DNA of 42,182 nucleotides from a virus, in IMG/VR virus record IMGVR_UViG_3300045988_148823, positions 1-42,182 of that record; one strand, given 5' to 3'. The translations under genes were made by a program, and so were the position numbers. Numbering within the stretch: the first letter of the stretch is position 1; every line of letters starts with the position of its first letter. The notes under the pieces were generated by a model, which worked only from the letters and a program-made list of their open reading frames with translations, was not told the origin of the DNA and ran no database searches. Shown here piece after piece: positions 221-26,783 of the stretch.

Positions 221-231
221 GAGGTGTATTT

Positions 232-657: not shown

Positions 658-725
658 TTCGTTTTTAGTAAGACTAGGATATTGCTCCTAGTCTTTATTT
701 TTATATACAAAGGAGAATATGGACT

Positions 726-1327: not shown

Positions 1328-1330
1328 CAA

Positions 1331-2998: not shown

Positions 2999-3657
2999 TG
3001 GAAATATATCTAGGAACAGATAATGACAAAATAAGATTTCCAGTAGTACCTTCATCTATTGGAGTAAATAGAAGTAATAATATAGATACTCAAGCAGTTA
3101 TAAAACTTGGAGAAGTGCCTATATTTAATGGTACATCACTTAAAACTATTGAATTTACTAGCTTTTTCCCTAATCAAGAATATAGTTTCTGTGATTATAC
3201 TGGATTTATGAAACCTTATGAATTCAGTGAAAAAATACAAAAGTGGATGTATGAGGGTAAACCTTTAAGAGTTATTGTTACTGATAGTCCGACTAATATG
3301 CAGTGCTTAATTCAACAATTTGATACAGTTGAACAAGACGGAACTAGAGATCTATATTTCACATTAAACTTATTAGAATATAGACCTATTGAAGTGCCTA
3401 GTTTAAGCAGTAGTAATACAAGTAGTAATTTAAATAATACTCAAAATACAAGTAGACCTAGTGAAGCAAGTAATAATTCAAGTAGTAGCCAAAAAACTCA
3501 CAAAGTAGTAAAAGGTGATTGCCTTTATGATATAGCCAAAAAATATTATGGTAAAGGTAGTTTATACCCTAAAATTAAAGAAGCTAATAAAAGTAAATAT
3601 CCATCACTAGCTAAAAGCAATGTTATATATACTTCTTGGGAGTTGATAATTCCATGA
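2998..3657 (+). CDS. LysM-domain tail protein (XkdP-like)
   Basis: C-terminal LysM-like segment HKVVKGDCLYDIAKKYYGKGSLYPKIKEANKSKYPSLAKSNVIYTSWELIIP. Ser/Asn-rich linker. Position follows the tape measure. Confidence 0.8.
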   Translation: MEIYLGTDNDKIRFPVVPSSIGVNRSNNIDTQAVIKLGEVPIFNGTSLKTIEFTSFFPNQEYSFCDYTGFMKPYEFSEKIQKWMYEGKPLRVIVTDSPTNMQCLIQQFDTVEQDGTRDLYFTLNLLEYRPIEVPSLSSSNTSSNLNNTQNTSRPSEASNNSSSSQKTHKVVKGDCLYDIAKKYYGKGSLYPKIKEANKSKYPSLAKSNVIYTSWELIIP

Positions 3658-5060
3658 TTAAATTAATATGCCAAAAGGTTAATGGAGAAAAACTTGATCT
3701 AACTAATTTATTAATTAATGTTACTTGGAGTGGGGATTATAAAAGTTGTGCTAGAAAACTTGAATTTTCTTTGATAAGTAGTCCTATGGATAAAAATATT
3801 CCTAAAGTTGATATACCTTTAATGAGTGTTATTAGTTTCTACGAAGATGATAACGAATTATTTAAGGGTTTTGTGTATGAAAGAGAAAAATCAAGTGATA
3901 ATAGTATGAGTTTCCTATGCTATGACTATTGTGCAAAGCTTAATGATATAAAAGTATCTTATAATATAAAGAATGAAACTGCATCTAGTATATATAATAA
4001 ATTCTTAACCGAATATAAGCTTAATAAAGGTGATATAGTTCAAGCTAATACTAAAATCAAGAAAGTATTTTTAGGAACTACTGCTTATGATATGATTATG
4101 ACCGCTTACACAGAAGAAGCTAAAAAGACTGGTAAAAAATATATGTTATATAGTAAAGGTGATAAATTTTATTCTACTGAAAAAGGTATTATTAAGCTTA
4201 GCTTATCTTTTGAAGAGGGTAAAAACATATTATCAAGTAGTTTTAAAGAATCTGTATCAAATATGGTTAATAAAGTATTAATTGTAGATGAAAACGGAAA
4301 TAAAGTATCAGAAGTAAAAAATGATGATTGGCACAAAGCTTATGGATTATTTCAAGATGTTTATAAGCAACAAGAAGGAAAAGACAGTAATACAGAAGCT
4401 AAAGCAATGCTAAAAGATATTGAGCAAACTTGCAGTCTAACTGGTTTTGGTGATACTACTTGTATAACTGGATATGGCGTTCAAGTTAAAGATTCTTATA
4501 CTGGATTAGTAGGTTTATTTTATATAGATAGTGATACTCATACTTGGTGTGGTGGGAATTATACTATAGACCTAGAATTAAATTTTAAAAATATTATGAA
4601 TGAAGTATCTAGTGGGCAAGATGAACAAACCGAAACAAGTTCAAGTTCATCAAGTTCAAGCAGTTCTACTTCAAGTAGTAGCAGTTCAAATTCTATAGGT
4701 GATAAGTTAGTTAGCTTAGCTAAATCAAAGCTTGGTTGCAAATATGTATGGGGTGCAACTGGACCTAATACATTCGACTGTAGCGGACTTACGAGTTGGT
4801 GTTATAAACAAGTTGGTATATCTATTCCTCGTACTTCTTTAGCACAGTCTAAAGGTGGTAAGGCAGTTAGTAAATCTAACTTACAACCTGGGGATTTACT
4901 ATTTTGGAAAACTACAAGTGCTGAAGTTGGTCATGTTGGAATGTATGTTGGTAATGGTCAATTTATTCACGCACCTAACAAGTCTAAGCCAGTAAAATAC
5001 GATAGTTTAAGCAATTCTTATTATTCTTCAAGATTTGTAAGAGCAAGGAGGTATTATTAA
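3654..5060 (+). CDS. Tail/baseplate hub protein (XkdQ-like) fused to a C-terminal NlpC/P60 endopeptidase
   Basis: ATG at 3654 overlaps the upstream stop (ATGA); the track's TTG at 3636 is less likely. Poly-Ser linker at about 4636-4694. NlpC/P60 motifs are FDCSGLTSWCY and GHVGMYVGNGQFIHAP. Confidence 0.8.
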   Translation: MIKLICQKVNGEKLDLTNLLINVTWSGDYKSCARKLEFSLISSPMDKNIPKVDIPLMSVISFYEDDNELFKGFVYEREKSSDNSMSFLCYDYCAKLNDIKVSYNIKNETASSIYNKFLTEYKLNKGDIVQANTKIKKVFLGTTAYDMIMTAYTEEAKKTGKKYMLYSKGDKFYSTEKGIIKLSLSFEEGKNILSSSFKESVSNMVNKVLIVDENGNKVSEVKNDDWHKAYGLFQDVYKQQEGKDSNTEAKAMLKDIEQTCSLTGFGDTTCITGYGVQVKDSYTGLVGLFYIDSDTHTWCGGNYTIDLELNFKNIMNEVSSGQDEQTETSSSSSSSSSSTSSSSSSNSIGDKLVSLAKSKLGCKYVWGATGPNTFDCSGLTSWCYKQVGISIPRTSLAQSKGGKAVSKSNLQPGDLLFWKTTSAEVGHVGMYVGNGQFIHAPNKSKPVKYDSLSNSYYSSRFVRARRYY

Positions 5061-5061
5061 T

Positions 5062-5367
5062 ATGAAAAATCCATTTTTAGAATTATATGAGATTATGGGT
5101 GAAGCTACTAAAATTGAAGCTTCTTTTTTTATTGCTAAAGTAGTATCTCCATTGCCTAATTTAAAAGTTAATCTTAATGATCTAGTATTAGATAAGGATG
5201 ATTTTTTAATAAGTAAAAGCTTATTGCTATCAAATAACGCTAATATAACTGTTTCTGAATGTAGCATTGAACATAATCTTAGAGATACATTAAACGTTAA
5301 TGATAAAGTTGTTTTATTAAAAGTAGATGATAAATTTATAATATTAAGCAAGGTGGTGAGTATATGA
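5062..5367 (+). CDS. Small baseplate-associated protein (XkdR-like)
   Basis: 101 aa. Segment AKVVSPLPNLKVNLNDLVLDKDDFLI resembles the XkdR family. Gene order is conserved. Confidence 0.55.
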   Translation: MKNPFLELYEIMGEATKIEASFFIAKVVSPLPNLKVNLNDLVLDKDDFLISKSLLLSNNANITVSECSIEHNLRDTLNVNDKVVLLKVDDKFIILSKVVSI

Positions 5368-5786
5368 GTTTATTTCCTTTTGTAAGTAATGTTGATGATG
5401 TAAAAGCAGATAATAGCTTCCCCCTATATAAAGAAATAGCTTGGAACTTTAAAAGGAATATTCCTATAATAGAAAACAGGGAATTCAAAATTGTTGAAGG
5501 CAATGAAGCTATAAAGGTATGGGTATATAAAGCATTATTAACTCCGAGGTATCAATATTCAATTTATACTTGGAATTATGGAAGTGAATTAATGGATCTA
5601 ATAGGTAAAGCATATACTCCTTCTCTTACTAAATCAGAAGCTAAAAGACTTATAAAAGAAGCACTTGAAATTAATCCATATATTTTAGAAGTTGAAATAA
5701 CTGATATAAGTTTTAAAGATAGCTTATTAAGTGCTACTGTAAAAGTAAAGACAATTTACGAGGGTGAGGTGATAGTAAATGTCTAA
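5364..5786 (+). CDS. Baseplate protein (XkdS-like)
   Basis: 140 aa. Segment EAIKVWVYKALLTPRYQYSIYTWNYGSELMDLIG is typical of XkdS-like proteins. Overlaps neighbouring genes by 4-8 nt. Confidence 0.7.
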   Translation: MSLFPFVSNVDDVKADNSFPLYKEIAWNFKRNIPIIENREFKIVEGNEAIKVWVYKALLTPRYQYSIYTWNYGSELMDLIGKAYTPSLTKSEAKRLIKEALEINPYILEVEITDISFKDSLLSATVKVKTIYEGEVIVNV

Positions 5787-6813
5787 TACTTATGAAAATA
5801 TAAAACAAAGAATACTTGATAATATAAATATAGATATAGACAAAAGAGAAGGTAGCTTTACTTCAAATATGGTAAGTGCATTAGCAGAAGAACTTGCAAA
5901 AGCTTATATAAATATGAGTGATATACTAAGCCTTGGCTTTATAGAAGATACCTTTGATACTTTCTTAGATAAAAGGGTGAGCGAATTTGGGGTGTATAGA
6001 AAACAAGGAACTAAGGCTATAGGAGAAATAAAAGTTGAAGGTAAAGAAGGTGTAACTATTGAAAATGGCACACTTGTAAAAGCTAACGACTTATATTTTA
6101 CAGTATTAAATGATATAGAACTTCCAACAGATAATATTTTATATGTAGAAGCTAACGAAGTAGGATATAAATATAACTTACTTGCAAATACTGAATTTGA
6201 GCTAGTTGAAAAGAATGATAAAGTAACTAAATTAGTAAATGAAACTGACTTCTCAAAAGGTGTAGATGTTGAAAGTGATGAAGATCTAAGAAAAAGATTT
6301 GTTAAAGTTGTAAATAACCCAAGTACAAGTGGAAATAAGGCACACTATGAAGAATGGGCTTTAGAAGTTGATGGAGTTGGAAGGGTTATAGTTTATCCTT
6401 TATGGAATGGCAACGGTACTGTAAAAGTAATGATAATAGGTAACGATAATAAACCAGTTACGGAAGAAATAATTGAAAATTGTAAACTTCATATTGAAGA
6501 AAATATGCCTATAGGATGCCAATTAACTGTCATTACTCCTAGCTTGTTAAATGTGGCTATAAATGCTTCTGTAGAGGTTAAAGTAGGTTATACCTTAGAG
6601 GATATTAAAGCAGACTTTGAAGCTTCTTTAAATGATTATTTAAAAGAGATTACAACGGAATTAACTTATTCTAAAGTGTATGGGTTATTAGCTAATCATG
6701 TTGGGGTAGAAGATATATCAATGTTAAAATTGAATAATTCTAGTAATAACATAACAATATCAGAAGATAAAATAATAAATATATCAGAAATAAATTTTAG
6801 TGAGGTGGTTTAG
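5779..6813 (+). CDS. Baseplate J-like protein (XkdT-like)
   Basis: 344 aa. Size, position and overall look match the Baseplate_J family (NPSTSGNKAHYEEWALEVDGVGRV). Confidence 0.8.
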   Translation: MSNTYENIKQRILDNINIDIDKREGSFTSNMVSALAEELAKAYINMSDILSLGFIEDTFDTFLDKRVSEFGVYRKQGTKAIGEIKVEGKEGVTIENGTLVKANDLYFTVLNDIELPTDNILYVEANEVGYKYNLLANTEFELVEKNDKVTKLVNETDFSKGVDVESDEDLRKRFVKVVNNPSTSGNKAHYEEWALEVDGVGRVIVYPLWNGNGTVKVMIIGNDNKPVTEEIIENCKLHIEENMPIGCQLTVITPSLLNVAINASVEVKVGYTLEDIKADFEASLNDYLKEITTELTYSKVYGLLANHVGVEDISMLKLNNSSNNITISEDKIINISEINFSEVV

Positions 6814-7356
6814 TTGAGTTTAATCAATAAGCTACCTTCTTTTTATGATAATGATATTACTAAACCTATACAAGATTCTTTTACTGTAGAAGCTAATTCT
6901 ATAAATGATGAAGTTGAAAACACATTAAATCAATTTTATGTTGATAGTGCAACTTATGGGCTTGATAAGTGGGAGGCTATGCTTGGTATATCTAAAAATA
7001 ACTTTGACTTCTTAACTAGGCGAGAAAATGTAAAAGCTAAAATGAGAAGTAAAGGAACAACAACTTTTACTATGATTAAAAATTTATGTGAAGCTTATTC
7101 TAATGGGATAGTTGAAATCAATGTAGATCATAGTAATTATAGCTTTGAGATAGTTTTTATATCAACTATAGGTGTGCCTTTAAGTTTTGAAGAACTTGAC
7201 AGAGTAATAAATGAAATAAAGCCATGTCATTTAGCACATAGTTACAAATTTAATTACAACACAAATAAAGATGTGTCTAAGTATACACATGAAGAATTAG
7301 CTTCCTATACACATGAAGAAATTAGAAACTCAAGTGAATTGAGAGGTGGTCAATAA
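6814..7356 (+). CDS. Tail protein (XkdU/YmfQ-like)
   Basis: TTG start abuts the upstream stop. Segment LPSFYDNDITKPIQ...FYVDSATYGLDKWEAMLGI is characteristic of the family. Confidence 0.7.
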   Translation: MSLINKLPSFYDNDITKPIQDSFTVEANSINDEVENTLNQFYVDSATYGLDKWEAMLGISKNNFDFLTRRENVKAKMRSKGTTTFTMIKNLCEAYSNGIVEINVDHSNYSFEIVFISTIGVPLSFEELDRVINEIKPCHLAHSYKFNYNTNKDVSKYTHEELASYTHEEIRNSSELRGGQ

Positions 7357-7685
7357 TGGCTAGTAAATATTTAAAAAATAGCGAAGGAATAGTAAAAGCT
7401 ATAACAACTAATAATTTACAACTTGAAAAGCCTATGCTAAACGAAAACTATGATATTGATGTTCATAATAGAAACATGGATAAGATAGATAATGCTATTC
7501 AAGAAGTAAAGGGTAGAATTGATGGTTTGGAATTAGTGGCAAGTAATGTAAAAATGGCAGATGGTACAACAGTAGAAGCTACTGTTTCAGCTAATAAATC
7601 AAGTATTTTAGAATTACAAAATGAACTAGGAACAAATAAAACTACTCTACAAAATAATATAAATGCAATAAGAGAGGTGTTATAA
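7356..7685 (+). CDS. Putative tail-fibre-associated coiled-coil protein
   Basis: 109 aa. Contains the LEKP..NENYDIDVHNRNMDKIDNAI motif common at N-termini of Firmicute phage fibre proteins. Start overlaps the upstream stop. Confidence 0.4.
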   Translation: MASKYLKNSEGIVKAITTNNLQLEKPMLNENYDIDVHNRNMDKIDNAIQEVKGRIDGLELVASNVKMADGTTVEATVSANKSSILELQNELGTNKTTLQNNINAIREVL

Positions 7686-8180
7686 ATGGCAACTCTTAAA
7701 CAATTAGTTGATGAAACTACGAAAATAAAAAATGAATTAAAAACTTGTCATACTAATTTGAAAAGTAATCTTATAGAAAAAAGCGTTGAATGTAGCGATA
7801 CAGATAAGTTATTAAGCTTAGTTGGTAAAGTTGGAGAAATTGAACTAGGTAAGAAATGGGCTAATGGAGAACATATCGTAAACTTTCCTAGTACATTTGT
7901 TTATAGTGTAGAGATTGATTTGAGTAATTTATCATTTACACCTTCCGTTGTAGTATGTGAGTTAAAAAATATAGAAGCTTGGAATAGTACAGGAGGGTTA
8001 ACAATTAAAGAACCTGTACTTATGAATGGTAAACAAATATCAGTTACTGATACTCAGCATAATATCACTGCTTGTAGTTGTTCATTTCACTCAAAAAAGA
8101 TTATTTTAAGTCCTACAAATAGGTTTATGAGAGTTTCAACGTCTTTAAGTGCTAAAATTATTTGGTATGCTTACGAATAG
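7686..8180 (+). CDS. Hypothetical tail-module protein
   Basis: 164-aa ORF, tightly packed within the fibre region. No recognisable motif. Confidence 0.4.
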   Translation: MATLKQLVDETTKIKNELKTCHTNLKSNLIEKSVECSDTDKLLSLVGKVGEIELGKKWANGEHIVNFPSTFVYSVEIDLSNLSFTPSVVVCELKNIEAWNSTGGLTIKEPVLMNGKQISVTDTQHNITACSCSFHSKKIILSPTNRFMRVSTSLSAKIIWYAYE

Positions 8181-8192
8181 GGGTGATAAGCT

Positions 8193-8738
8193 ATGAAAAA
8201 AATAGGAACTAAAATATATTATTGCTTGACAAGTGGAAATGTAATAAAAATCATAGGTGATTGTCAAGGATATGTAAGAGAAACAACTTTTGATGAAGAT
8301 TATGAAATATATTCAGAACTAAAAGAAAGAGAAAAATCTAGTATAGGACTTCTTCAATTTGAGTATGGGGAATATCCTAAATTATCTCAAGGTAGTACAG
8401 GAGTAACAGTTAATATTGAAACTAAAGAATTAATATTTAATTATGATGAATTACCACAAGAACCACAAGAGCCACAAGAACCTACTGAAATTGAAAAAAT
8501 CAAAATAGAACAAGAGCAACAAAACAAAGATATATTAATTAATATGTTAGCTACTACGGAAATGTATGAAATCAATAGAACTCTTAATATATCAACGCTT
8601 GAAAGTGATTCAGAGGTAAAAACAATTAAAAAAGCCCCTACTTATATTCAGTCTACTTATCAAAGGCTTTATGAATTAGGAATAAAGAAACTAGAAGAAA
8701 TTCCTTTCGAGATAAGAATAAATTTAAAAGCAAAATAG
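8193..8738 (+). CDS. Hypothetical tail-module protein with PQE tandem repeat
   Basis: 181 aa. PQEPQEPQEP is encoded at 8454-8483. RBS ggggtga upstream. Confidence 0.4.
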   Translation: MKKIGTKIYYCLTSGNVIKIIGDCQGYVRETTFDEDYEIYSELKEREKSSIGLLQFEYGEYPKLSQGSTGVTVNIETKELIFNYDELPQEPQEPQEPTEIEKIKIEQEQQNKDILINMLATTEMYEINRTLNISTLESDSEVKTIKKAPTYIQSTYQRLYELGIKKLEEIPFEIRINLKAK

Positions 8739-8749
8739 GAGGTGCTTAA

Positions 8750-11134
8750 ATGAATACTTTAGATAAAGTTTACGATCTTACTATTGATATAAAAAATATT
8801 GATGTCAAATATAATAGTTATGCAAAATTCTTTGATGATGATAGAGAAACATCTGTTATAAGAATAAAGCTTCTTAATGATAAAACTCCTATCGATTTAG
8901 AAGGTTGTACGGTAGAAGCTGAATTTATACTAGCTAATAATACATATCATGATGAAACTTGTAAAATCATTAATAGTAGTGAAGGTGTAGTCGAATTACA
9001 ATTATGTCAAAAATGTTTAGTTAAAGGTGAAAATATTGTTAGGCTTTCAATATTAAAAGATAATGAAATATCTAATACTCCAGTTATAACATATGAGGTT
9101 AGAAAAGGATTATACAGTGATAATCCAAGCTTTAACGATGATCCATTAACTCCTATTTTAAGTCAGATGCTTTTAGATATTAAAGTAACAAAAGTTAATC
9201 AAATAGAATTACAAGAAAGATATGAAAAATCATTGCCTAAAATAGAAGGTAAAATAAAAGAAGTTGAAAGCCTTATAAATAGGGTTGATACTGCTATAGC
9301 TAGTGGGACACAAGATTTAGAAGTTAAAGAAGCTAGAGCAAATAAAAAAGGTATTGTTTATGCAAAATTAGGTGATAGACTTAACGAAGTTGATTCACAA
9401 TTGGAACATAAAGCGAATTTGAATGCTGTATTTTCAATGGCTAATATGGGGCAAGATGTTAAGGAAGCTATGACTGGTGGAAGTGTTGCGGTAGTTGGAA
9501 GGAACACTATATTAAAGGAAAATGTAGTTGATAAACAAATAACACCGTCTAAAACGTCTTTCATAGATGTAGAGAATTCCGTTAATCTTTTTAATAAGAA
9601 TAGTGGAGAAATTCAGTTAGGAGGTTATTTAGATGCTTCTGGGGAGTTCAAAGAATATACTTCTTACTTTGTAGGGCATAAAATAGATGTAACTGAAGGA
9701 CAAACGTATACAGTAAGTTATGCAGAGCCTAGCTGGGGTGGTTTTTATAATAGTGAAGGAACATTTATTTCTAAAATAGGGACACCTTCAGGGGTATTAA
9801 GTCCGTTTACATTTACAGTACCCGAAGGGGCTTGTTATATGCGTCTAAACGGTATTATTAGTAGTATGAATACTTATATGATTGTTTTAGGAGATAGCTT
9901 ACCAAGTCAATACGTAGCATTTTATAAGAACTTCACTTTAAATGAGAGTGTGAAGATAGAAGATGTTGCAAAGTTACAAGAGGAGTACGAATATAATATA
10001 CCTCTCCTTCAAAACCGTTTTGTAGATAGTTTAAATTTATTTGACAAAACAAGTCCTGAAATAATTTTAGGAAGTTTCATAACTAGTGCAAGTGGGGATA
10101 TGTCTACGTCAACGTCAACAGCTATAAGTCCTTATATGCCCGTAAAACCTAATGAGGTTTATTCGTTTAAGTTTTACCCAGACATATACGGTTCTAATAA
10201 GAACTACGCCTTTTATGATAGGAATAAAAATCCTATTGAAGACGTTTTAAACTGTGTTTTGGACGAGGAAACAAATGTACTAACTATAACAGTACCTAAT
10301 ATAGACACGATAAAATATGTACGTGTTAATTGTAGTGAAAATGATTTAGATTCGTTTATGTTCGTAAAGGGCGAAACGTACCCAAGCGAATATATTTCAG
10401 GGAATGCAACCTTGAGAAGTAATATAGATTTAAATGACCTTCAAAAAGATACTGTAGGTAAGATTGTAAAGGGCATACTAGATACAACATCTATAAATTC
10501 GGTATTAGTCAATAAAGTAATTACTTTTAATGGCGACAGTATATGTGCAGGGGCAGGTTATACTGGGGGGTATGGAAAAATAATCGCAGATAAGTATAAT
10601 ATGACTTACGAGAATGTAGCTGTAAGTGGTGGAACTATAACTGCTGAAACTTATTCTGCTAGTGGTAGTGCAAGACATTGGATAAGTAGAACAATATCTA
10701 AAATGAGAGATGATGCTGATTATATAGTCTTAGAAGGTGGAGTTAATGATGCTTCTTTAAGTATTCCTTTAGGTGAAATAACATCTGATTATATATCTAC
10801 TTTAGACGATACTACTTATTGTGGTGCTTTTGAAAGTATGTTAAAACAAGCGTTAGGAAAGTATCCTAGTAAAAAAATAGGTTATATAATGGTTCATAAA
10901 ATGGAGAAAAATTTTGATAGTAGATACGAAGATAATCATTATCAAATGAGTAAAAAAATATGTGAGAAGTGGGGCGTCCCTTATTTAGATTTAAATATTG
11001 AATGTCCTCCGTTAAATTATATACCTTCATTAAAAGCAACTTATACAAAAGATGGAGATGGTTGGCATCCAAATGAACTAGGATATAAAAAGTATTATGT
11101 TGATAAAATAGTTCATTGGCTTGAATCACTTTAG
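8750..11134 (+). CDS. Large fibre/receptor-binding protein: BppU-like N-terminus, two tandem paralogous modules, C-terminal SGNH/GDSL hydrolase
   Basis: 794 aa. The N-terminal Ig-like region resembles BppU_N. Modules starting (V/L)NLF(N/D)K(N/T)S(G/P)EI(Q/I)LG are encoded from about 9581 and 10031. SGNH blocks are FNGDSICAG, VSGGT, EGGVNDA and DGWHPN (about 10516-11134). Confidence 0.75.
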   Translation: MNTLDKVYDLTIDIKNIDVKYNSYAKFFDDDRETSVIRIKLLNDKTPIDLEGCTVEAEFILANNTYHDETCKIINSSEGVVELQLCQKCLVKGENIVRLSILKDNEISNTPVITYEVRKGLYSDNPSFNDDPLTPILSQMLLDIKVTKVNQIELQERYEKSLPKIEGKIKEVESLINRVDTAIASGTQDLEVKEARANKKGIVYAKLGDRLNEVDSQLEHKANLNAVFSMANMGQDVKEAMTGGSVAVVGRNTILKENVVDKQITPSKTSFIDVENSVNLFNKNSGEIQLGGYLDASGEFKEYTSYFVGHKIDVTEGQTYTVSYAEPSWGGFYNSEGTFISKIGTPSGVLSPFTFTVPEGACYMRLNGIISSMNTYMIVLGDSLPSQYVAFYKNFTLNESVKIEDVAKLQEEYEYNIPLLQNRFVDSLNLFDKTSPEIILGSFITSASGDMSTSTSTAISPYMPVKPNEVYSFKFYPDIYGSNKNYAFYDRNKNPIEDVLNCVLDEETNVLTITVPNIDTIKYVRVNCSENDLDSFMFVKGETYPSEYISGNATLRSNIDLNDLQKDTVGKIVKGILDTTSINSVLVNKVITFNGDSICAGAGYTGGYGKIIADKYNMTYENVAVSGGTITAETYSASGSARHWISRTISKMRDDADYIVLEGGVNDASLSIPLGEITSDYISTLDDTTYCGAFESMLKQALGKYPSKKIGYIMVHKMEKNFDSRYEDNHYQMSKKICEKWGVPYLDLNIECPPLNYIPSLKATYTKDGDGWHPNELGYKKYYVDKIVHWLESL

Positions 11135-11164
11135 ATAAAAAATGCGAACTAAACTAAATAACTT

Positions 11165-11189
11165 AGGACCTATAGTTTAGGTCCTTTTT
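11165..11189 (+). terminator. Rho-independent terminator after the fibre gene
   Basis: AGGACC (11165-70) pairs with GGTCCT (11180-85), followed by a T-run. Confidence 0.7.
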
Positions 11190-11213
11190 AATATAAAAAG
11201 GGTGGTGGAATAA

Positions 11214-11492
11214 GTGGAACAAATGATAACAAACTTTGGCTTTCCTATAGCTTGTGCATGTGCTTTAGGTGTTTATTTTGTACAAAAAGATAAAGCTTCT
11301 AGAGAAGATATAAATAAAATCATAGACAATTTAAGAGAAGATAATAAACTAGATAGGGAACTATACAGAGATACAATAGATAAATTTAACAGTAAATTAG
11401 ATAAATTTGCAATAGCTTTAGAAAGTAACAATAATCGTTTAGAATCTATTGAAGATGATGTGAGAAGCATAAAAGAAAGGGTAGGTGTATAG
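11214..11492 (+). CDS. Holin-like protein (BhlA/UviB family look)
   Basis: Single N-terminal TM (FGFPIACACALGVYFV) followed by a charged coiled-coil tail. Lies immediately upstream of the amidase. GTG at 11214 or in-frame ATG at 11223. Confidence 0.65.
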   Translation: MEQMITNFGFPIACACALGVYFVQKDKASREDINKIIDNLREDNKLDRELYRDTIDKFNSKLDKFAIALESNNNRLESIEDDVRSIKERVGV

Positions 11493-11494
11493 AT

Positions 11495-12172
11495 ATGAAA
11501 ATATTAATATCAGCAGGTCATACTCTTACTGGTAAAGGTACTGGTGCAGTTGGTTTTATAAATGAAAGTCAAGAAAATAGAGTATTAGCTAAATTTATAG
11601 TTGAGCACCTTAAAAAACTAGGTCATGAAGTAGATTATCACGAAGTAAATAGTGGAAGTGATTATATAAACCAACAAGCTAAAAAAGCTAATTCTAAAAA
11701 ATATGATGTTGTAGTTCAAATACATTTTAATTGCTCAGATAATGCAACTGCTAATGGCACAGAAGTTATATACAGAAGTTCTAAAGGAAAAGTATTTGCT
11801 CAAAGAGTTCAAGATAAACTTAAAGCTGAATTTAAAGACAGAAAGATAAAACACGATATAAACGACCTAAAACGTGATTTAGGTTGGTTAAGATTAACTA
11901 AGCCCCCTGCAATATTAATAGAAACTTGTTTCGTATCTAATAAAAGTGATACTGATAAATATACATCTGATAGGAAAAAGATAGCTAAATTAATAGCAGA
12001 GGGAATAGCAAATCAAACTATATCTGAAAATAGTAATTCTAGTGTTTCATCTACTGATAAAAAACTATATGCAGTTTGTATTGGTGCTTATAGTGATAAA
12101 TCTGTAGCAGATTCAAAAGTTGAAGAATTAAAGAAAAAAGGTTATAAAGATACATATTTAATTCCAAGATAA
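11495..12172 (+). CDS. Endolysin: N-acetylmuramoyl-L-alanine amidase (Amidase_3 type) with C-terminal SPOR-like domain
   Basis: N-terminal MKILISAGHTLTGKGTGAVG, then VVQIHFN and ILIETCFVSN, typical of Amidase_3. C-terminal KLYAVCIGAYSDKSVADSKVEELKKKGYKDTYLIPR resembles SPOR. Confidence 0.9.
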   Translation: MKILISAGHTLTGKGTGAVGFINESQENRVLAKFIVEHLKKLGHEVDYHEVNSGSDYINQQAKKANSKKYDVVVQIHFNCSDNATANGTEVIYRSSKGKVFAQRVQDKLKAEFKDRKIKHDINDLKRDLGWLRLTKPPAILIETCFVSNKSDTDKYTSDRKKIAKLIAEGIANQTISENSNSSVSSTDKKLYAVCIGAYSDKSVADSKVEELKKKGYKDTYLIPR

Positions 12173-14508: not shown

Positions 14509-14640
14509 TTATTCTTCTATAACTATAGCAATTATTTTTTTATTTTGGTCAATTATAACTTTCTTGCCTTCTACTAAATGCCATTTCCAATAGTTAGGCA
14601 CTTCGATTATTTTATCATTTTCAAGTAATTTTATTTTCAT
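14509..14640 (-). CDS. Small hypothetical protein (43 aa), first gene of the leftward cluster
   Basis: An internal ATG at 14640 is preceded by aggagg (complement of 14645-50). The track start at 14700 has no RBS. Protein: MKIKLLENDKIIEVPNYWKWHLVEGKKVIIDQNKKIIAIVIEE. Confidence 0.55.
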   Translation of the reverse strand: MKIKLLENDKIIEVPNYWKWHLVEGKKVIIDQNKKIIAIVIEE

Positions 14641-14717
14641 TTTTCCTCCTTTGTGGTATGAGCTGTTTATCTCTACTAGGTGTTTGTAAAATTTTAACAA
14701 TTATATTGTATATGAGT

Positions 14718-14744
14718 TTATCCACAATATCCACATAATCCACA
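14718..14744. promoter_or_regulatory. Three contiguous DnaA-box 9-mers
   Basis: TTATCCACA (14718-26, perfect consensus), ATATCCACA (14727-35) and TAATCCACA (14736-44), head to tail. Confidence 0.7.
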
Positions 14745-14782
14745 AATATTGTTTATAGCTTAAACCGTTGAAAATACTGCAC

Positions 14783-14892
14783 ACGTTCAGTGGAATTGAC
14801 GGTATAAATAAAAATATAATACCCACACGTTCCGTGGAATTGACGGGGTACGTTCCGTGGAATTGACGGGGTTAATTCGATGGAATTGAACA
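14783..14892. repeat. Iteron array: four direct copies of about 20-22 bp, ACGTTCCGTGGAATTGACGGGG
   Basis: Copies lie at 14783-14802, 14827-14848, 14850-14871 and about 14873-14892 (degenerate). The core TGGAATTGA starts at 14791, 14835, 14858 and 14881, giving spacings of 44, 23 and 23 nt. The array is GC-rich against an AT-rich background. Confidence 0.85.
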
Positions 14893-14971
14893 AAGATAGA
14901 TAAGTTATTATAGGGAAATTATTATAGATAATATATATATAATAAAAAAATTTTAGTTTTTAATAAAAAAC

Positions 14972-15000
14972 ATATACATATCCTATTAAGTATGTTATAA
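14972..15000 (+). promoter_or_regulatory. Putative sigma-A promoter for the 15032 operon
   Basis: Extended -10 TGtTATAAT (14992-15000). -35-like tataca at 14972-77, 17 nt upstream. Sits inside the AT-rich tract 14893-15000. Confidence 0.5.
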
Positions 15001-15031
15001 TAATATTAGAAAACAGATAAGGAGGTTAAAA

Positions 15032-15367
15032 ATGAGTGTTAATTTTGAAATGGCTATAAGTAATAATATTGATGTAAAAGATATAACTCTTATAAGCTAT
15101 TTATCTTTAGTATCAGAAAGAGAAAATTTAGGAGAAGAATTTGAATTGCCATATGCAAAAATAATAAATGATTTACCTATCATATTTAATAACAAAAGTT
15201 ACGAAGCTAATTCTGTTAAACTTAGAAGGATGTTAGACAAAGAGGGTATGAAGAAGTTTATAACAAGGGAAATTTTAAAAAAGGGTAGAGAATTTGGAAC
15301 TGTTGTTTTATTTAAGCTTAATAAGCCAAATATAGAAAAGCTTATTATAAAAGGAATAGTAAAGTAA
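15032..15367 (+). CDS. Small winged-helix-like protein next to the iterons (possible origin-binding or accessory protein)
   Basis: 111 aa with RBS aaggagg. Function is inferred only from position and an HTH-like segment (NSVKLRRMLDKEGMKKFITREILKKGREFGTVVLFKLN). Confidence 0.4.
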   Translation: MSVNFEMAISNNIDVKDITLISYLSLVSERENLGEEFELPYAKIINDLPIIFNNKSYEANSVKLRRMLDKEGMKKFITREILKKGREFGTVVLFKLNKPNIEKLIIKGIVK

Positions 15368-15384
15368 TAAAGGGGGATAACTAA

Positions 15385-16269
15385 ATGAAATATATACACG
15401 GTTTTTTAAGCAGCAGATTGAAAGAGGAAAAAATAAGCCATGATGAAAGCTTAGTTATAAGATATTTATTAAACTTTATAAATAGTAACAAGATGGAAAA
15501 GGTGCTTGTAAATGGTGAATTTTATTATTGGGTAAAATATGAAAAAGTAGCTACAGATTTAGAAATATTAGGAGTTAAAAAACAAGCTATAAGCGATATG
15601 TTAATTTATGATTTAGGAGAAAAGCCAAGCGATTGGGAAGAAAGGCTTAACTCAATGAAAGAAAGTAGCAGAAAGAAAAAGATGAAATCTAAATTTATAG
15701 GAATATTTAAAAGATACACTAAAAAAGATGCAGAAGGCACTAAATCTTATTTTGCCCCTACTGAAAAATTATATTCACTTCTTCCAAGCATAACGGAAGA
15801 TGATGAAGATATGAAAAATAAAAAAGCCCCTACTTTGCCACAAGTAGAAGCCGAAGAAATCAAACCTAATAAAAGTATATGCAATTCTGATATAAATAAT
15901 ACTTCATTTGATGAAAAAAATCAATGTAAAAAAGTAGAAAGTGAAGTAGTGAAAGTTATAAATAAAAGTTGTGTAAATATTAGAAAGCAAGATTTAAAAG
16001 ATTGTGAAGAAGAATTTACTGATATAGATAAATTAAAAGAAGCTTTAGAGGTATGCGAGAAAAATAATTCTCACGGTATTAAATCATTAAGAATGGCTTA
16101 TAAATATGGGAATGTTAATATCAATAATTCAAATAAAAAACAAAGTACAATATTTATGGCAGATAGTAAAGTTATTGTAGATGGAAAATTAAAAAGTGTA
16201 GCTGATATGACTGAGGAAGAATTTGAACAGAAGCTTAGAGAAAAATGGGGAAGAAACTTTATAGGCTAA
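15385..16269 (+). CDS. Putative iteron-dependent replication initiator (Rep-like, N-terminal winged helix)
   Basis: 294 aa with RBS aggggga. N-terminal wHTH-like segment (LVIRYLLNFINSNKMEKVLVNGEFYYWVKYEKVATDLEILGVKKQAISDML). Lies immediately downstream of DnaA boxes, iterons and the AT tract. No family recognised by eye. Confidence 0.4.
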   Translation: MKYIHGFLSSRLKEEKISHDESLVIRYLLNFINSNKMEKVLVNGEFYYWVKYEKVATDLEILGVKKQAISDMLIYDLGEKPSDWEERLNSMKESSRKKKMKSKFIGIFKRYTKKDAEGTKSYFAPTEKLYSLLPSITEDDEDMKNKKAPTLPQVEAEEIKPNKSICNSDINNTSFDEKNQCKKVESEVVKVINKSCVNIRKQDLKDCEEEFTDIDKLKEALEVCEKNNSHGIKSLRMAYKYGNVNINNSNKKQSTIFMADSKVIVDGKLKSVADMTEEEFEQKLREKWGRNFIG

Positions 16270-16348
16270 AACAAATTTAAAGGGCATTGAGAGAGGTTTT
16301 AAGCTTCTCTTAATGTAAATATATAATAAAAGGTAGTGAGATATAAAA

Positions 16349-16815: not shown

Positions 16816-17397
16816 TTGAATACAAAAGCTAAAAGAACAAGGAAAAAATGGACTAAAGAAGAAGATAATTTTCTAGTTGAGAATTGGGGAAAAATTAAAA
16901 TAGATAATTTATGTAAAAGACTAGGTAGAACTAAAAGGGCAGTAGAAGAAAGGGCTTATAACACTTTAAAGTTAGGGCATCAAACTCAATGGTATACTTT
17001 ATTAGAAATTCAGCATATAACTGGGATAAACAAAGATACTATAAGGAAAAGAATTGTTAAGACTAATTTTAAGTGTATGAGAGCAAGAACTAAGCAAAAG
17101 CCTTATATGTTAGATGAAGTTCAACTTAAAAAGTTTCTAAAACAAAATCAAGACTTATGGCATACAAAGAATTTAACTATAAATATTTTTAGCAATGAAA
17201 AATGGTATTTAGAAAAAGTTGAAACTGATAAATTTAAGACTAATAAATACAATAAAGCTTGGTCAGAGTATGAAGATAATATAATGCTTGATAGATTGAG
17301 TAGGGGCTTTACTTATGAAGATATAGCTAAGGAATTAAATAGAACTGTCGAAGGTGTCTTTGGAAGGCATAAATATAAATACAGACTGAAATTGTAG
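16816..17397 (+). CDS. Protein with two Myb/SANT-like DNA-binding repeats
   Basis: TTG start after agagggga. Repeat 1 is KWTKEEDNFLVENWGKIKIDNLCKRLGRTKRAVEERAY. Repeat 2 is AWSEYEDNIMLDRLSRGFTYEDIAKELNRTVEGVFGRHKY. Both fit the W-x-EED...L-GRT...R pattern. Confidence 0.55.
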   Translation: MNTKAKRTRKKWTKEEDNFLVENWGKIKIDNLCKRLGRTKRAVEERAYNTLKLGHQTQWYTLLEIQHITGINKDTIRKRIVKTNFKCMRARTKQKPYMLDEVQLKKFLKQNQDLWHTKNLTINIFSNEKWYLEKVETDKFKTNKYNKAWSEYEDNIMLDRLSRGFTYEDIAKELNRTVEGVFGRHKYKYRLKL

Positions 17398-19017: not shown

Positions 19018-20184
19018 ATGATAATAAATTTAGGTAAATATTCTTTTTTAAATAATGCAAAAGAAAAAATTATTAATTTAATTTGTGATAAATTTAATAT
19101 AGCAGACTATCCAAATCTGCATAGTTTTATAGATGTTAAGCAGTTAGATGTTATAAATGTATATGATAATGAAGTTTTGTATAAGTTTAAATTAAGACTT
19201 AAAAGACATGGAGAAGTTACAATAAATAATTTAGAAGATTATAGAGAAGTAATTGAAAATATAGTTGAAAGATCTATAAATTTTAAGATAGTTGATTATA
19301 AAAATATATATGTAGAAGTTTTGTATTCAGATCAAGAAAAAGATCAAGAAAATATAGGAATCAGTAACACAATTAAATATGAATATATGCCTACAGAAAC
19401 TTTTGATAAGTATAAAGTTGATAATACTATAAAGTATCAATTCAAAGAAGGAGAAAAGGAAGGGCTTAGCTTTTATTTAGGTAAAGATTTAGAAGGTAAT
19501 GACTTCAAGATAGATATATTAGATGGTAGCTTATTAATAGGTGGCATGACTGGGGCAGGGAAATCTAATATTGTAAATGTATTGATTGCAAGCTTAATGC
19601 TTACTTATACTGAAAAAGAATTAGTTTTCTTAGGTTGTGATATGGCTGAATCTGATGTGTATTATTTCAGAAATCATAAACATTTTAGAGGAATGTCTAC
19701 TACTTGTGGTAAGTTTTTAGAACAAGTTGAATGGTTAGAAAAGAAGTTTAAAGAAAGAGCAAAAATATTAAATGATGCAGGGTGCAGAAATGTAGTAAGT
19801 TATAATCAAAAGCATGATACAAAAATGAGTTACTTTGTATTTGTAATAGATGAAGTTGTATTATTGACTAGAAATAGTAAATGTAAAGATAAGCTTCACG
19901 ATATAATGTGTGTAGGAAGAAAGTATGGATGTTATTTTATATTATGCTTACAAGATGCTACAAAAGACACTATAGGTAAATGCAAAATGAATTGCCCACA
20001 AGTTATAGGACTTAGAACTAATGATGAAACTGATAGCAATACTATTATAGGCAAGGGGCATAATTTACAAGATATAAAAGACGTAGGAAGATGTAAAGTT
20101 AAAAATAAAAATGGAGTTACAGAAGTTCAAAGTTATTTTATAGAAGAAGATTTAATAGATAAATTATTAAAAGGCTGTAAATAG
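19018..20184 (+). CDS. FtsK/SpoIIIE-family P-loop ATPase, with no TM segments and no gamma domain
   Basis: Walker A LLIGGMTGAGKSNIVN, Walker B YFVFVIDEVVLL, and GRKYGCYFILCLQDATKDTIGKCKMNCPQVIGLRTNDETDSNTIIG match the FtsK motor core. The roughly 170-aa N-terminal region is unrecognised. Confidence 0.8.
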   Translation: MIINLGKYSFLNNAKEKIINLICDKFNIADYPNLHSFIDVKQLDVINVYDNEVLYKFKLRLKRHGEVTINNLEDYREVIENIVERSINFKIVDYKNIYVEVLYSDQEKDQENIGISNTIKYEYMPTETFDKYKVDNTIKYQFKEGEKEGLSFYLGKDLEGNDFKIDILDGSLLIGGMTGAGKSNIVNVLIASLMLTYTEKELVFLGCDMAESDVYYFRNHKHFRGMSTTCGKFLEQVEWLEKKFKERAKILNDAGCRNVVSYNQKHDTKMSYFVFVIDEVVLLTRNSKCKDKLHDIMCVGRKYGCYFILCLQDATKDTIGKCKMNCPQVIGLRTNDETDSNTIIGKGHNLQDIKDVGRCKVKNKNGVTEVQSYFIEEDLIDKLLKGCK

Positions 20185-24222: not shown

Positions 24223-24954
24223 ATGAGTTATACAGTAATAGAAAATGATTTTTTTGATAACAATAGTTTAAAAATTAATACATGGGCAGTATTAATGTTT
24301 TTGTTAAGATATGAAAATAAAGATAAGGGATATGCTTACCCTTCACAAAGTATGCTTTTAAAGAAAACTGGATTAAGTAAAGTTACTCTTTTAAAATGCT
24401 TGAATGAGTTAGAAGAGAGAGGATATATAACCATAAAAAAAAGCAATGGGGAAAATAATAAATATTACATTAATGCAAATATAAAAAATGATACCAATAC
24501 TAAAATTAGTACCGGTACTAAAAATAGTAGTACTGAAATTAGTACCGATACCTGTACTAAAAATAGTACCCTACAATTACTAAATAAAAATAATAAAAAA
24601 GAAAAAGGAAAAAAGAAAACTAGTTTAGATGAAATTATAGAAACTTATACTGAAAATGATTCATTAAAAGAAACTATAAAAGATTTTATTAAAATGAGAA
24701 AAACTATTAAGAAACCAGTTACAGATAGAAGTCTTAAATTAACATTAAATAAATTAGATCAGTATGGGAGAAATGATTTGGAAAAAATAGAGATACTTGA
24801 AAATAGTATTATGAATTGTTGGCAAGGAGTATTTGAATTAAAAAATAAAAAAGAACCTACTGCAATAGGTTCTGATAAAAATAAAAATATTAAAGTTAAT
24901 CCTAGTATATGCAATAGTGGGAGAAAATATTCAAGGGGAGTTGAAATGTTGTGA
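24223..24954 (+). CDS. Replisome organizer / DnaD-like replication protein (wHTH N-terminus, DnaD-like C-terminus)
   Basis: N-terminal YAYPSQSMLLKKTGLSKVTLLKCLNELEERGYITIKK. C-terminal LKETIKDFIKMRKTIKKPVTDRSLKLTLNKL...ILENSIMNCWQGVF is typical of phage replisome-organizer C-termini. Followed directly by the primase-helicase. Confidence 0.7.
   Translation: MSYTVIENDFFDNNSLKINTWAVLMFLLRYENKDKGYAYPSQSMLLKKTGLSKVTLLKCLNELEERGYITIKKSNGENNKYYINANIKNDTNTKISTGTKNSSTEISTDTCTKNSTLQLLNKNNKKEKGKKKTSLDEIIETYTENDSLKETIKDFIKMRKTIKKPVTDRSLKLTLNKLDQYGRNDLEKIEILENSIMNCWQGVFELKNKKEPTAIGSDKNKNIKVNPSICNSGRKYSRGVEML
24497..24569. repeat. Array of four 16-bp palindromes (GTACT-N6-AGTAC) inside the replisome-organizer gene; candidate lytic origin
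   Basis: aTACTaaaattAGTAC 24497-512; GTACTaaaaatAGTAg 24515-30; GTACTgaaattAGTAC 24530-45; GTACTaaaaatAGTAC 24554-69. Confidence 0.8.
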
Positions 24955-26783
24955 TAGATATTAAAAAAATAATTGATGATATAAAAAATCAAATAAGAGC
25001 AGAAGAAGTTAAAAATAAAATAGCTTCTGATTTAAATTTAAAATTAGATAAATCAAATAAATGCTTATGTTTTAACCATAATGAAAAAGTTCCAAGTATG
25101 AGTTTTGATATGAAAGCTAAAAAATTTAGATGTTTTAGTTGTGCTCATACTTACGATATATTTAATCATTATCAAGAATATTATAATAAATCATTCATAG
25201 AAGCCGTAAAATCTATTGTAAACGATTTTAATATATCAACTGATAAATTAATCATTAACACAGAAAGAAAAGCTATAAAGACACCTACAATCCACAAAAA
25301 CAATATTTCTAAATCTATTTCATATATAAATAAAAGATGTATAAGTGAAAACACAATAAAGTATGCAGATGTTAGAGAAGATGATAAAGGTAATATAGTG
25401 TTTATTTATAAAAATGAATTAGGAGAACATATAACAAATAAATACAGACCTAGTTACAAGATAGATAAAAGTAAAAAACAATTAAAGACTTGGTTTGAAG
25501 CTGAAACTAACATAAATACTTTGTACTTAATGGATAAAGCAGATATAACTAAACCATTGGTAATATGCGAAGGTGAATTTGACTGTTTAAGTCTTATCGA
25601 AAGTGGGATTAAAAATGCAGTAAGTGTTCCGACTGGATGCAAATCTACTGAATGGATCACAACTAACTGGACTTGGTTAGAGCAATTTGAGGAAATAATT
25701 CTTTGGTTTGATAATGACGAAGCTGGTAAAGAAGGGGTAAAAGAAGTATTTAACAGATTACCTAACAAAACTGTAAAAATAGTTTATTCAGATATATGCA
25801 ACGATATAAATGAAATATTATTTAAGTATGGTAAATTAGCAGTATTAAAGCAATTTGAAAAAGCTTCTATTCCTCTTATTGACGGAGTTAAAAGCACTAA
25901 GCAAATATCAACTTTTAACATATACGAAGCTGAAACAATTCAAATAGGAATAAAAAAAATAGATGATAGAATAATTGGTTTGCCTCTTGGAAGCTTAAAT
26001 GTAATAACTGGAAGAACTGGAGAAGGTAAATCGACTATATTAAATCAATTTTTTATAGGGGAAAGTATAAGGCAAGGATATAAAGTATTTTTATTTAGTG
26101 GAGAACTTACAGAAAGTAATGCTAAAGGTTGGCTTTTAGATACTTTAGCTAACAAAGATGATTTATTAGAATTTACAAATAAAAAAGGATATAAATATAA
26201 AAAACTTTCATCAAAAGCAGTAAGCAAAATAGATGATTTTTTAGAAGATAAATTTTTCCTATATACAGAAGAAGATTACACTATAAATGCAATTATATCT
26301 AAAATGGAAATCATGGCTAAAAGATATGGTGTAAAAGTATTCTGTATAGATAATTTAATGGTTACTGAAAATGACGAAAAAGAAGAGTTGAGAAATCAAA
26401 CTGAAATAGTTAAAAAATTAAAAAGTTTTGCTAAAAAATATAATGCAATAGTTCATTTAGTAGCACATCCAAGAAAGGCACAGAACGGTCAAACTGGACT
26501 TGATAAATCTGATATAAGTGGATCGGCTAATATAACTAACCTAGCAGATTATGTAATGATAGTTCAGAGAATAAAAGATGAAGAAGATGCGACTAAAGAT
26601 AAGCATACTATATTAACTATAGATAAAGATAGATATATGGGTAATAGATTAGGAATTGAATTATTATTTGATAAAGATAGAAGAAGATTTTATTGTTTGA
26701 ATGGTAATGGAGAAGAATTAGAAGTTAATTATTTATTAGAAGAATTTGAACAAATAGAAGGGGAATGGACATGGGAAGATTAG
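24951..26783 (+). CDS. Bifunctional primase-helicase (zinc finger + Toprim + DnaB/RecA-type helicase)
   Basis: Zn motif CLCFNHNEKVPSMSF..FRCFSCAHTYD. Toprim VICEGEFDCLSL...WFDNDEAGKEG. Walker A ITGRTGEGKST, Walker B VFCIDNLM, and HLVAHPRK. GTG start overlaps the upstream stop. Confidence 0.85.
   Translation: MIDIKKIIDDIKNQIRAEEVKNKIASDLNLKLDKSNKCLCFNHNEKVPSMSFDMKAKKFRCFSCAHTYDIFNHYQEYYNKSFIEAVKSIVNDFNISTDKLIINTERKAIKTPTIHKNNISKSISYINKRCISENTIKYADVREDDKGNIVFIYKNELGEHITNKYRPSYKIDKSKKQLKTWFEAETNINTLYLMDKADITKPLVICEGEFDCLSLIESGIKNAVSVPTGCKSTEWITTNWTWLEQFEEIILWFDNDEAGKEGVKEVFNRLPNKTVKIVYSDICNDINEILFKYGKLAVLKQFEKASIPLIDGVKSTKQISTFNIYEAETIQIGIKKIDDRIIGLPLGSLNVITGRTGEGKSTILNQFFIGESIRQGYKVFLFSGELTESNAKGWLLDTLANKDDLLEFTNKKGYKYKKLSSKAVSKIDDFLEDKFFLYTEEDYTINAIISKMEIMAKRYGVKVFCIDNLMVTENDEKEELRNQTEIVKKLKSFAKKYNAIVHLVAHPRKAQNGQTGLDKSDISGSANITNLADYVMIVQRIKDEEDATKDKHTILTIDKDRYMGNRLGIELLFDKDRRRFYCLNGNGEELEVNYLLEEFEQIEGEWTWED

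Follow-up and report, generated by a model that had tools for sequence, protein, structure and literature searches.

This locus raises the question of whether a short intergenic region carrying DnaA boxes and direct repeats, together with the two genes that follow it, constitutes a replication origin with its own initiator and, if so, whether the phage that carries it is maintained as a plasmid. The DNA analyzed here, the window, is the whole of the 42,182-nt virus record IMGVR_UViG_3300045988_148823 of IMG/VR, a tailed-phage genome of ~42.1 kb and 27% G+C that was assembled as a circle from a human gut metagenome (ERR1190613, contig k127_79369). The element is an uncultured phage of gut Clostridium. 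An earlier note, made from the sequence alone, had described a plasmid-type origin in a genome with no integrase and had proposed a phage-plasmid. Our analysis makes it probable that the 14.65–16.3 kb segment is a self-contained origin cassette, comprising a functional origin plus its initiator, whereas the step from there to a plasmid was not supported.

A modular cassette with features of an iteron origin

The cassette sits in a 390-nt gap between divergent transcription units, and its features follow one another along the DNA in the order DnaA boxes, phased repeats, A+T maximum, promoter, ribosome-binding site and genes. Three tandem DnaA boxes (TTATCCACA, ATATCCACA and TAATCCACA; 14718–14744, plus strand), read directly from the sequence, are arranged head to tail. 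One of them is the sole perfect DnaA box in the 42 kb, and a genome-wide count of boxes with at most one mismatch gave 17 against 14.5 expected; because this is no enrichment, the signal lies in the in-phase clustering of the triplet. After a gap of 39 nt come four iterons, direct repeats of 22–23 nt (14783–14894, plus strand; individual copies at 14783–14804, 14827–14848, 14850–14871 and 14873–14894), each of which contains a dyad, TTCC-GT-GGAA, followed by TTGAC. Their core, TTCnGTGGAATTGA, is found at 14786, 14830, 14853 and 14876, with spacings of 44, 23 and 23 nt, and has no further copy anywhere in the window. Copies 2 and 3 have one and the same 22-mer, to which copy 1 conforms at 19 of 22 positions and copy 4, which is closer to the consensus in relatives, at 12 of 22. 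The region thus offers at least three co-oriented repeats in the 17–24-bp range, at approximately two-turn spacing and with adjoining DnaA boxes. Beyond the iterons lies a tract of 87% A+T (14893–15000, unstranded), a candidate DNA unwinding element (DUE) of suitable composition: the AT-richest 108-nt interval of the genome begins at 14906, and just 0.2% of such intervals attain its value. Inside this tract is a rightward promoter, TATACA-17-TATAAT (plus strand; −35 at 14973–14978, extended −10 with upstream TG at 14996–15001), which is followed by an AAGGAGG ribosome-binding site and the start codon of the first gene, 15032. The boxes and the AT tract with its extended −10 are as the earlier note had described them; its four repeats stand as regards core and spacing, but the 22-mer that it quoted is exact for copies 2 and 3 only. 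Its likening of the whole to an iteron oriV holds to the extent that the region resembles an iteron origin that is assisted by DnaA and provided with an initiator gene of its own, but not for the designation "plasmid-type".

The main evidence for this reading comes from the comparison of relatives, which are designated by locus numbers (L014 and so on) where they must be told apart. The two genes of the cassette (15032–15367 and 15385–16269) are real open reading frames (ORFs), conserved in more than 100 metagenome contigs, and the 15385 protein has hundreds of close homologs in gut metagenomes. The intergenic region is near-invariant among relatives with 80–95% identical proteins, and every relative examined has two to four tandem DnaA boxes at the same place. 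Conserved block 1 (CTCTACTAGGTGTTTGTAAAATT; 14671–14693, plus strand) is kept in L018, L014, L020, L040 and L041 despite their different repeats or initiator domains, while block 2 (AGCTTAAACCGTTGAAAATACTG; 14757–14779, plus strand), recognized in the alignment of cassettes and used as a search anchor, lies between the boxes and the repeats and contains TTGAAA. These two blocks flank the boxes and, as CTCTACTAGGTGCTTGTAAAATT and AAACCGTTGAAAAT, are conserved across all cassette types though the iterons differ.

Over six cassette types, the repeat sequence shifts with the type of initiator N-terminal domain (N-domain), and the boxes and flanking blocks remain constant. Relative to the window repeat, ACGTTCCGTGGAATTGACGGGG, the same core with the TTGAC flank on the opposite side is present in L016, in which the initiator N-domain is 64% identical to that of the window, the small gene encodes a different, 78-aa protein and the contig starts inside the repeats. 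L014 (N-domain 47% identical; 88-aa small protein of HTH_36/MarR-like type) has two boxes and one plus four copies of TCATATGATAAGACGGG at 22–23-nt spacing. In L031, with an N-domain that resembles that of the window by eye and a small gene of MazE/AbrB type, three boxes, the first of them degenerate (TTATCAACA), accompany three 24-mers (ACACCCTACATTTTTATAGAGTGT). L018 combines a RepA_N-type N-domain and a MarR-like small gene with three boxes and the repeat TTCTAAAAGT, and L023 combines a DnaD_N/HTH_36-type N-domain and a 47-aa ribbon-helix-helix (RHH) small gene with four boxes and CCCCCCTATGTAAAATTTAAA. Importantly, the small HTH_36-type proteins of L014 and L018 can be aligned with one another (as judged from the alignment), whereas their repeats are different; conversely, the small proteins of the window and L016 differ, whereas the repeat core is the same. 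These contrasts indicate that the repeats follow the initiator N-domain and not the small protein. Because this is the pattern expected of iterons and their initiator, we read the region as an origin. As judged by sequence comparison, the cassette is modular: the host-factor sites appear to be fixed, while iterons, small regulator and initiator DNA-binding domain appear to be exchanged together.

The 15385 protein (15385–16269, plus strand; 294 aa) is a two-module, initiator-like protein with a DNA-binding domain at residues 1–135, a linker at residues ~142–170 and a C-terminal module at residues ~185–290. In an exhaustive phmmer search, residues 1–150 (matches from residue 4) resembled the N-termini of proteins with Phg_2220_C or DnaB_2 C-termini, the DnaD-like domains of phage replisome organizers. 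The N-domain relative in L017 lies in a temperate module of serine integrase, cI, cro, organizer, DnaB helicase and single-stranded DNA-binding protein (SSB), and tblastn located others in the organizer position on the phage-like plasmids pCd18_3 of C. difficile and p6CSt of C. botulinum. Residues ~135–294 resemble instead the C-termini of proteins with RepA_N (33–52 bits, cut-off 30) or DnaD_N/HTH_36 N-termini. Profile comparison makes the 15385 N-domain a family of its own, unrelated to RepA_N (hhalign probability 1%), whereas the RepA_N and DnaD_N types are mutually related. The AlphaFold model has a confident N-terminal helix/hairpin domain (residues 1–135, predicted local distance difference test (pLDDT) >90) and a four-helix C-terminal bundle; against BFVD it gave significant matches to phage-protein folds, the best to a Phg_2220_C protein (E 5.5e-7), and weaker ones annotated as replication initiator, replisome organizer or lambda O N-terminal domain. 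Neither RepE nor any other Rep protein was among the 50 PDB matches listed for this model. A Rep_3 domain with two winged helices was found neither by Pfam or NCBIfam nor among PDB folds, and RepA_N (PF06970) is not present at the N-terminus, only the C-terminal module being common to RepA_N proteins. With organizers 15385 shares a homologous origin-binding winged helix, as suggested by phmmer, the L017 context and BFVD, and it lacks their C-terminal DnaD-like domain (Pfam, hhalign). We conclude that the sequence is that of a putative initiator-type protein of an undescribed family.

The first gene of the operon, 15032 (15032–15367, plus strand), encodes a 111-aa protein that is a candidate Cop-like DNA-binding autoregulator. 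Searches found close homologs only and no family match in Pfam, PHROG or NCBIfam; its model is mediocre (pLDDT 70), the winged-helix matches obtained with Foldseek against the PDB were non-significant, and RepE appeared among its fold matches only at E >4. In relatives the slot is filled by small proteins of HTH_36/MarR-like winged-helix, RHH or MazE/AbrB type. In the copG-repB operon of pMV158 a small Cop regulator is likewise encoded ahead of rep (PMC5703833), and by analogy the 15032 product is probably an operon autoregulator of this kind and not a second Rep. The earlier note had called both genes winged-helix-like and Rep-like. Both descriptions suit 15385, the former by virtue of residues 1–135, but the fold is weakly supported for 15032, which occupies the slot of small regulators; the profile searches that it had suggested placed neither protein in a plasmid Rep family (Pfam, NCBIfam).

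We propose that host DnaA would bind the three tandem boxes and that the N-terminal winged helix of 15385 would bind the four iterons, as the co-variation suggests, so that together they would open the adjacent AT-richest tract. More speculatively, the C-terminal module of 15385, DnaA, or both would recruit a helicase, either by the host DnaD/DnaB/DnaI-DnaC route or by way of the phage primase-helicase. The promoter in the AT tract would drive the two-gene operon, and the 15032 product, to judge by its position and its interchangeable counterparts, would probably autoregulate this operon as Cop proteins do.

Several observations weigh against an origin. Neither half of 15385 matched a family in Pfam, PHROG or NCBIfam, and Foldseek against the PDB returned only non-significant winged helices for it, including DnaD-N. 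Its C-terminal module was found by hhalign to be unrelated to Phg_2220_C and DnaB_2 (probability ≤0.2%), so that a link to a helicase is not established. GC skew mirrors the coding strand only and points to no origin, and a complete initiator and helicase set is encoded elsewhere, so that the 15385 cassette is not obviously needed. In L040 and L041 the DnaA boxes and the promoter are kept and the intergenic iterons are absent, so that the boxes could serve promoters and not an origin, and a promoter-like site on the minus strand of the window (TGGATA-17-TACAAT, 14733 to 14705), which would serve the leftward genes, overlaps the boxes. The last two observations would suit a transcriptional control region in which the repeats are operators for the 15032 product, the 15385 product or both, as regulators of the divergent early promoters, and DnaA acts as a transcription factor on the leftward or the rightward promoter; DnaA is a known transcription factor, which stimulates lambda pR, the cassette lies between divergent transcription units, and the products of the small first gene have repressor folds (MarR-like, RHH, AbrB). 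However, the repeats stand ~100 nt ahead of the −35 instead of covering the promoter, four co-oriented 22–23-nt units beside an A+T maximum are origin-like and not operator-like, the repeat occurs at no other promoter, and both halves of the co-varying protein, 15385, are shared with replication initiators, all of which makes a purely transcriptional role unlikely.

No part of the region is more conserved than the boxes, which are retained even without iterons, and this might also be expected of a non-replicative array that titrates or anchors host DnaA, so as to take over the host or to tether incoming DNA to the membrane, as in the injection-stop proposal for T5. In T5-like phages, conserved DnaA-box arrays have been proposed to be unrelated to replication (bioRxiv 10.1101/866236). 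We consider such a role here very improbable: two to four boxes are too few to titrate DnaA, they are always directly beside an initiator-gene cassette, and an assembly of permuted circles implies no fixed leading end on which injection control could act. The least credible alternative would make the repeats a partition centromere bound by 15032, as by TubR or ParR. In type II and III centromeres, arrays of direct repeats stand beside a gene that encodes a small protein of winged-helix or RHH type, and a centromere would supply the stability function that is missing from the phage-plasmid reading; but the gene that comes next is initiator-like and does not encode a motor protein (ParA, ParM or TubZ), and the repeats co-vary with the 15385 N-domain and not with the small protein. 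An origin with its initiator remains the reading that we prefer.

Some further observations concern the cassette and its surroundings. A short direct-repeat pair, TTATTATAG, was seen by eye in the AT tract (14905–14913 and 14919–14927), and a cassette-specific short repeat pair lies between iterons and promoter in every cassette type (L014 at 1308–1359, L016, L018, L023 and L031; mostly by eye); such pairs might serve the small protein as operators or else be DUE repeats. Right after the 15385 stop codon is a stable hairpin (16284–16316, plus strand; −18.6 kcal/mol, z −4.0) with no U-tract, the sequence of which is also found after a downstream gene in L005 and with which the two-gene unit may end. 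Contigs L003, L015 and L016 begin, at position 1, inside tandem iterons; this is most simply explained as an assembly break at a tandem repeat and not as a physical genome end. The initiators of L040 and L041 had been candidates for carriers of DnaB_2, which Pfam did not confirm. An Rfam scan of 12–17 kb gave no match. The left edge of the divergent control region is formed by a 43-aa gene taken from the ORF list (14509–14640, minus strand), the first of the leftward unit, the counterpart of which was called as a 42–43-aa gene in L009–L012, L023, L040 and L041.

A second initiator and a shared antisense hairpin

The gene 24223 (24223–24954, plus strand) encodes the second initiator, a replisome organizer with an HTH_36/DnaD_N N-terminus and PHROG matches to O-like and DnaD-like initiators. 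Clustered inside this gene, at 24491–24575 between the parts encoding its domains, are five to six TACTAAAAnTAGTAC palindromes, which by analogy form a candidate lambda-type origin. The gene is followed by those for a primase-helicase (24951–26783, plus strand; phrog_239, E 8e-93, with Pfam domains in homologs) and an SSB (28327–28728, plus strand; phrog_44, E 4e-42), and an Erf/Rad52-type annealing protein and an ERCC4 nuclease are also encoded around this module, which agrees with the phage-type replication module that had been noted 9 kb from the cassette. Relatives retain both initiator slots, and this holds even for one with a siphovirus tail. From its sequence, then, the phage appears to have two initiator/origin pairs, 9 kb apart.

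Both initiator genes contain an antisense element. Its first copy lies in the linker-coding part of 15385 (15809–15897, minus strand; 85.8 bits) and consists of a TATACT −10-like box, a hairpin (15852–15825) and a T-run; the second copy is situated in the 3′ portion of 24223, shortly before the start codon for the primase-helicase (24836–24927, minus strand; 72 bits). The common layout is TATACT with an upstream TG, 26–38 nt, a 10–11-bp hairpin and T6(A/G)T4-5. The stem is kept while the peptide encoded across it varies (PTLPQVE, STVPPVK, STGGTVK, STLAEVE, EPTAIGS): 97.7% of the cells in the stem alignment pair, five of the 11 pairs change on both sides, and none of 500 shuffles reached these values. 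With a covariance model, the element was found in initiator genes only, including loci outside the training set (L016 at 861–946, L031 at 928–1025, and the organizers of L040 at 10730–10821 and L041 at 17260–17351), and was not found in unrelated organizers. The peptide motif NKKxPT...N.SICNS, common to 15385 and 24223, was considered as a protein feature and is better explained at the nucleic-acid level, by the element on the opposite strand. The element may be the terminator of a countertranscript, a sense-strand frameshift or pausing site, or a recombination joint between modules. The candidate frameshift site, AAAAATAAAAAAG plus the hairpin, has an A-run before the hairpin, and the −1 frame stops within eight codons in every variant.

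Genome organization and lifestyle

The first 55 nt of the window are identical to the last 55 (42128–42182), and the sheath ORF (~41300–42182 plus 1–231) spans the join, indicating that the window is a circular assembly opened inside a gene; the genome is thus closed, as the earlier note had held, in the form in which it was assembled. Virion and lysis genes run from 33 kb through the join to 12 kb and encode tail tube, baseplate J, Mu gp48, amidase, SPP1-type portal and large terminase, so that a complete virion, packaging and lysis gene set was detected. The large terminase is encoded in two ORFs, one for the N-terminal ATPase and one for the C-terminal nuclease, with a GIY-YIG/NUMOD3 homing-endonuclease gene between them (33251–33961, 34012–34722 and 34935–35510). 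After the lysin, at 12.7–14.6 kb, is a short cluster of small leftward ORFs, and all genes from 15032 on are rightward. An FtsK/SpoIIIE-like ATPase gene (19018–20184) is kept in all relatives, always followed by a GIY-YIG gene, and its product is the sole candidate for a role in DNA segregation. A siphovirus tail module (Sipho_tail, Prophage_tail) occupies positions 1–5700 of L041, as compared with 232–12172 of the window, and the whole early and replication region is common to L041 and this myovirus, which is large-scale mosaicism. An initiator-like gene fills the cassette slot in every case, also in this siphovirus-tailed relative, and a search by way of the neighboring gene 16816 found no relative with an integrase or par module in place of the cassette. 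A megablast search with 13–19 kb gave no match to cultured phages, and in tblastn searches identity to any phage or plasmid record was at most 36%, so that the lifestyle is not to be inferred from relatives.

One possibility is that the phage is a plasmid prophage with the cassette as its maintenance replicon, which would depend on DnaA, be limited by Cop and perhaps by antisense RNA, and keep the genome circular in lysogens, and that the 24223 module drives lytic replication, in the manner of P1 oriR and oriL. The earlier note was right about the integrase: Pfam scans of essentially all ORFs of at least 100 aa, with the sheath gene that spans the window ends left out, revealed no recombinase domain of any kind. 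The conservation of two initiator/origin pairs throughout the group also fits a plasmid prophage, as do the apparent reliance on the host initiator, the small regulator ahead of rep and the candidate countertranscript, which are traits of controlled plasmid replication (PMC5703833). Furthermore, host DNA surrounds none of the more than 100 contigs of relatives, the longest of which are 40–54 kb, a Clostridium metagenome-assembled genome (MAG) includes one binned copy, and, as described above, N-domain relatives reside on phage-like plasmids of C. difficile and C. botulinum. ParA is present on these plasmids, however, and absent from this genome. Partition and lysogeny functions are expected in phage-plasmids of this size (PMC7969092), whereas Pfam, PHROG and NCBIfam scans of the ORFs found no ParA, ParB, ParM or TubZ, the FtsK-like protein being the only segregation-type ATPase; that no ParA/ParM system could be recognized, as had been noted before, is thus sustained. 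Nor was a divergently transcribed repressor or an S24-type CI recognized, only small XRE-type helix-turn-helix proteins encoded inside the rightward operon. The replication set is self-sufficient, and the genome has several homing endonucleases and the split terminase gene, which are commoner in virulent phages. Isolate genomes, PLSDB plasmids and phage databases contained no carrier of this phage element, which is known from metagenome contigs and two MAG contigs. The cassette gene lies at varying offsets in similar-sized contigs of relatives, indicative of circular permutation, and circular permuted contigs are equally expected from a virulent phage with headful packaging. On this balance a plasmid prophage appears rather doubtful, and the phage-plasmid proposal is not supported by a genome in which no partition genes and no clear repressor were found and circularity also fits headful packaging.

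The nearest N-domain relatives of 15385 are phage replisome organizers, one of them in an integrase-bearing temperate phage, and the association of 15385 with RepA_N is confined to the C-terminal module. In lytic phage replication, iteron origins served by winged-helix initiators are commonplace, examples being lambda O and SPP1 G38P. Our tentative preference is for an early or alternative origin that depends on the host, in a phage that does not integrate and is possibly virulent, a role that we consider somewhat likelier than that of a stable plasmid prophage. It is also conceivable, though improbable, that the group consists of phage-plasmids with no partition system or a novel one, in which a DnaA-iteron replicon with Cop and a ~50-nt countertranscript alternates with the lambda-type origin and the shared antisense hairpin coordinates the switch. 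One candidate host-phage junction, which would matter if real, was rejected: in L005, positions 1–3146 carry T2SSE, DUF881 and NTPase genes that abut the cassette promoter in place of the boxes and iterons. This single 5.2-kb scaffold, which is interrupted by an N gap, is bounded on either side by non-phage sequence and has its join inside the AT tract, is probably chimeric.

Comparison with known replicons

The cassette provides a candidate origin and initiator for an abundant group of uncultured human-gut Clostridium phages, with an initiator neither half of which belongs to a curated family. It amounts to a natural swap experiment, in which host-factor sites are fixed and iterons and DNA-binding domains are exchanged, and which could be used to map specificity and recruitment by the C-terminal module; if the cassette replicates alone, it could seed vectors for low-GC gut anaerobes. 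More generally, iterons, a Rep protein and the lack of an integrase are insufficient to call a metagenomic phage a phage-plasmid.

The order of DnaA boxes, iterons and AT-rich element in RK2 oriV (PMC4980987) is also that of boxes, iterons and DUE in the window. Like RK2 oriV, P1 oriR, F ori2 and pSC101, the window has DnaA boxes, phased 17–24-bp repeats, an AT-rich element and a winged-helix initiator encoded alongside; unlike them, it has an initiator that is not of the Rep_3/RepE type with two winged helices (Pfam; no significant PDB fold), its host is a Firmicute, the element is a tailed phage, and neither a handcuffing array nor a second set of iterons was observed. P1 is similar in having two origins with separate initiators in one phage genome, one of them with DnaA boxes and iterons, whereas its parABS, C1 immunity and Cre/lox systems have no detectable counterpart here. 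In RepA_N plasmids the iterons lie inside rep. RepA_N initiators bind iterons through their N-domain, and their C-domain is thought to contact host replication proteins (PMC5703833). The RepA_N replicons pSK41 and pAD1 resemble the cassette in their two-domain initiator, and in sister cassettes genuine RepA_N domains are joined to the C-terminal module found in 15385, whereas the 15385 N-domain is not RepA_N and the window iterons are upstream of the gene. In addition, the antisense RNA of pSK41 targets the leader, whereas the element in the window is mid-gene.

Phage organizers (lambda O, SPP1 G38P and Phg_2220_C/DnaD-like proteins) are the closest in the N-domain, which is homologous to that of Phg_2220_C/DnaB_2 organizers and has its best fold matches there, and 24223 is itself of this kind, with repeats within the gene. 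In contrast to these, 15385 has no DnaD-like C-domain, no helicase or loader gene follows it, and its origin, including DnaA boxes, lies outside the gene. Copy control as in pMV158 (copG-repB and RNAII) and pIP501 (CopR and RNAIII) offers a parallel for the small DNA-binding protein encoded before the initiator and for the candidate short countertranscript with hairpin and T-run (PMC5703833), although here the candidate antisense RNA is situated mid-gene, in the linker-coding part, and not at the rep start or leader, and is also present in the second initiator gene. Finally, the modular RepA initiator of PLE, a Vibrio cholerae satellite, binds iterons, and the element replicates only during lytic infection (PMC7145576). 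While PLE differs from the phage studied here in being an integrated satellite of a Gram-negative host, with no DnaA boxes described, its case illustrates that an iteron array together with a Rep protein does not imply a plasmid state.

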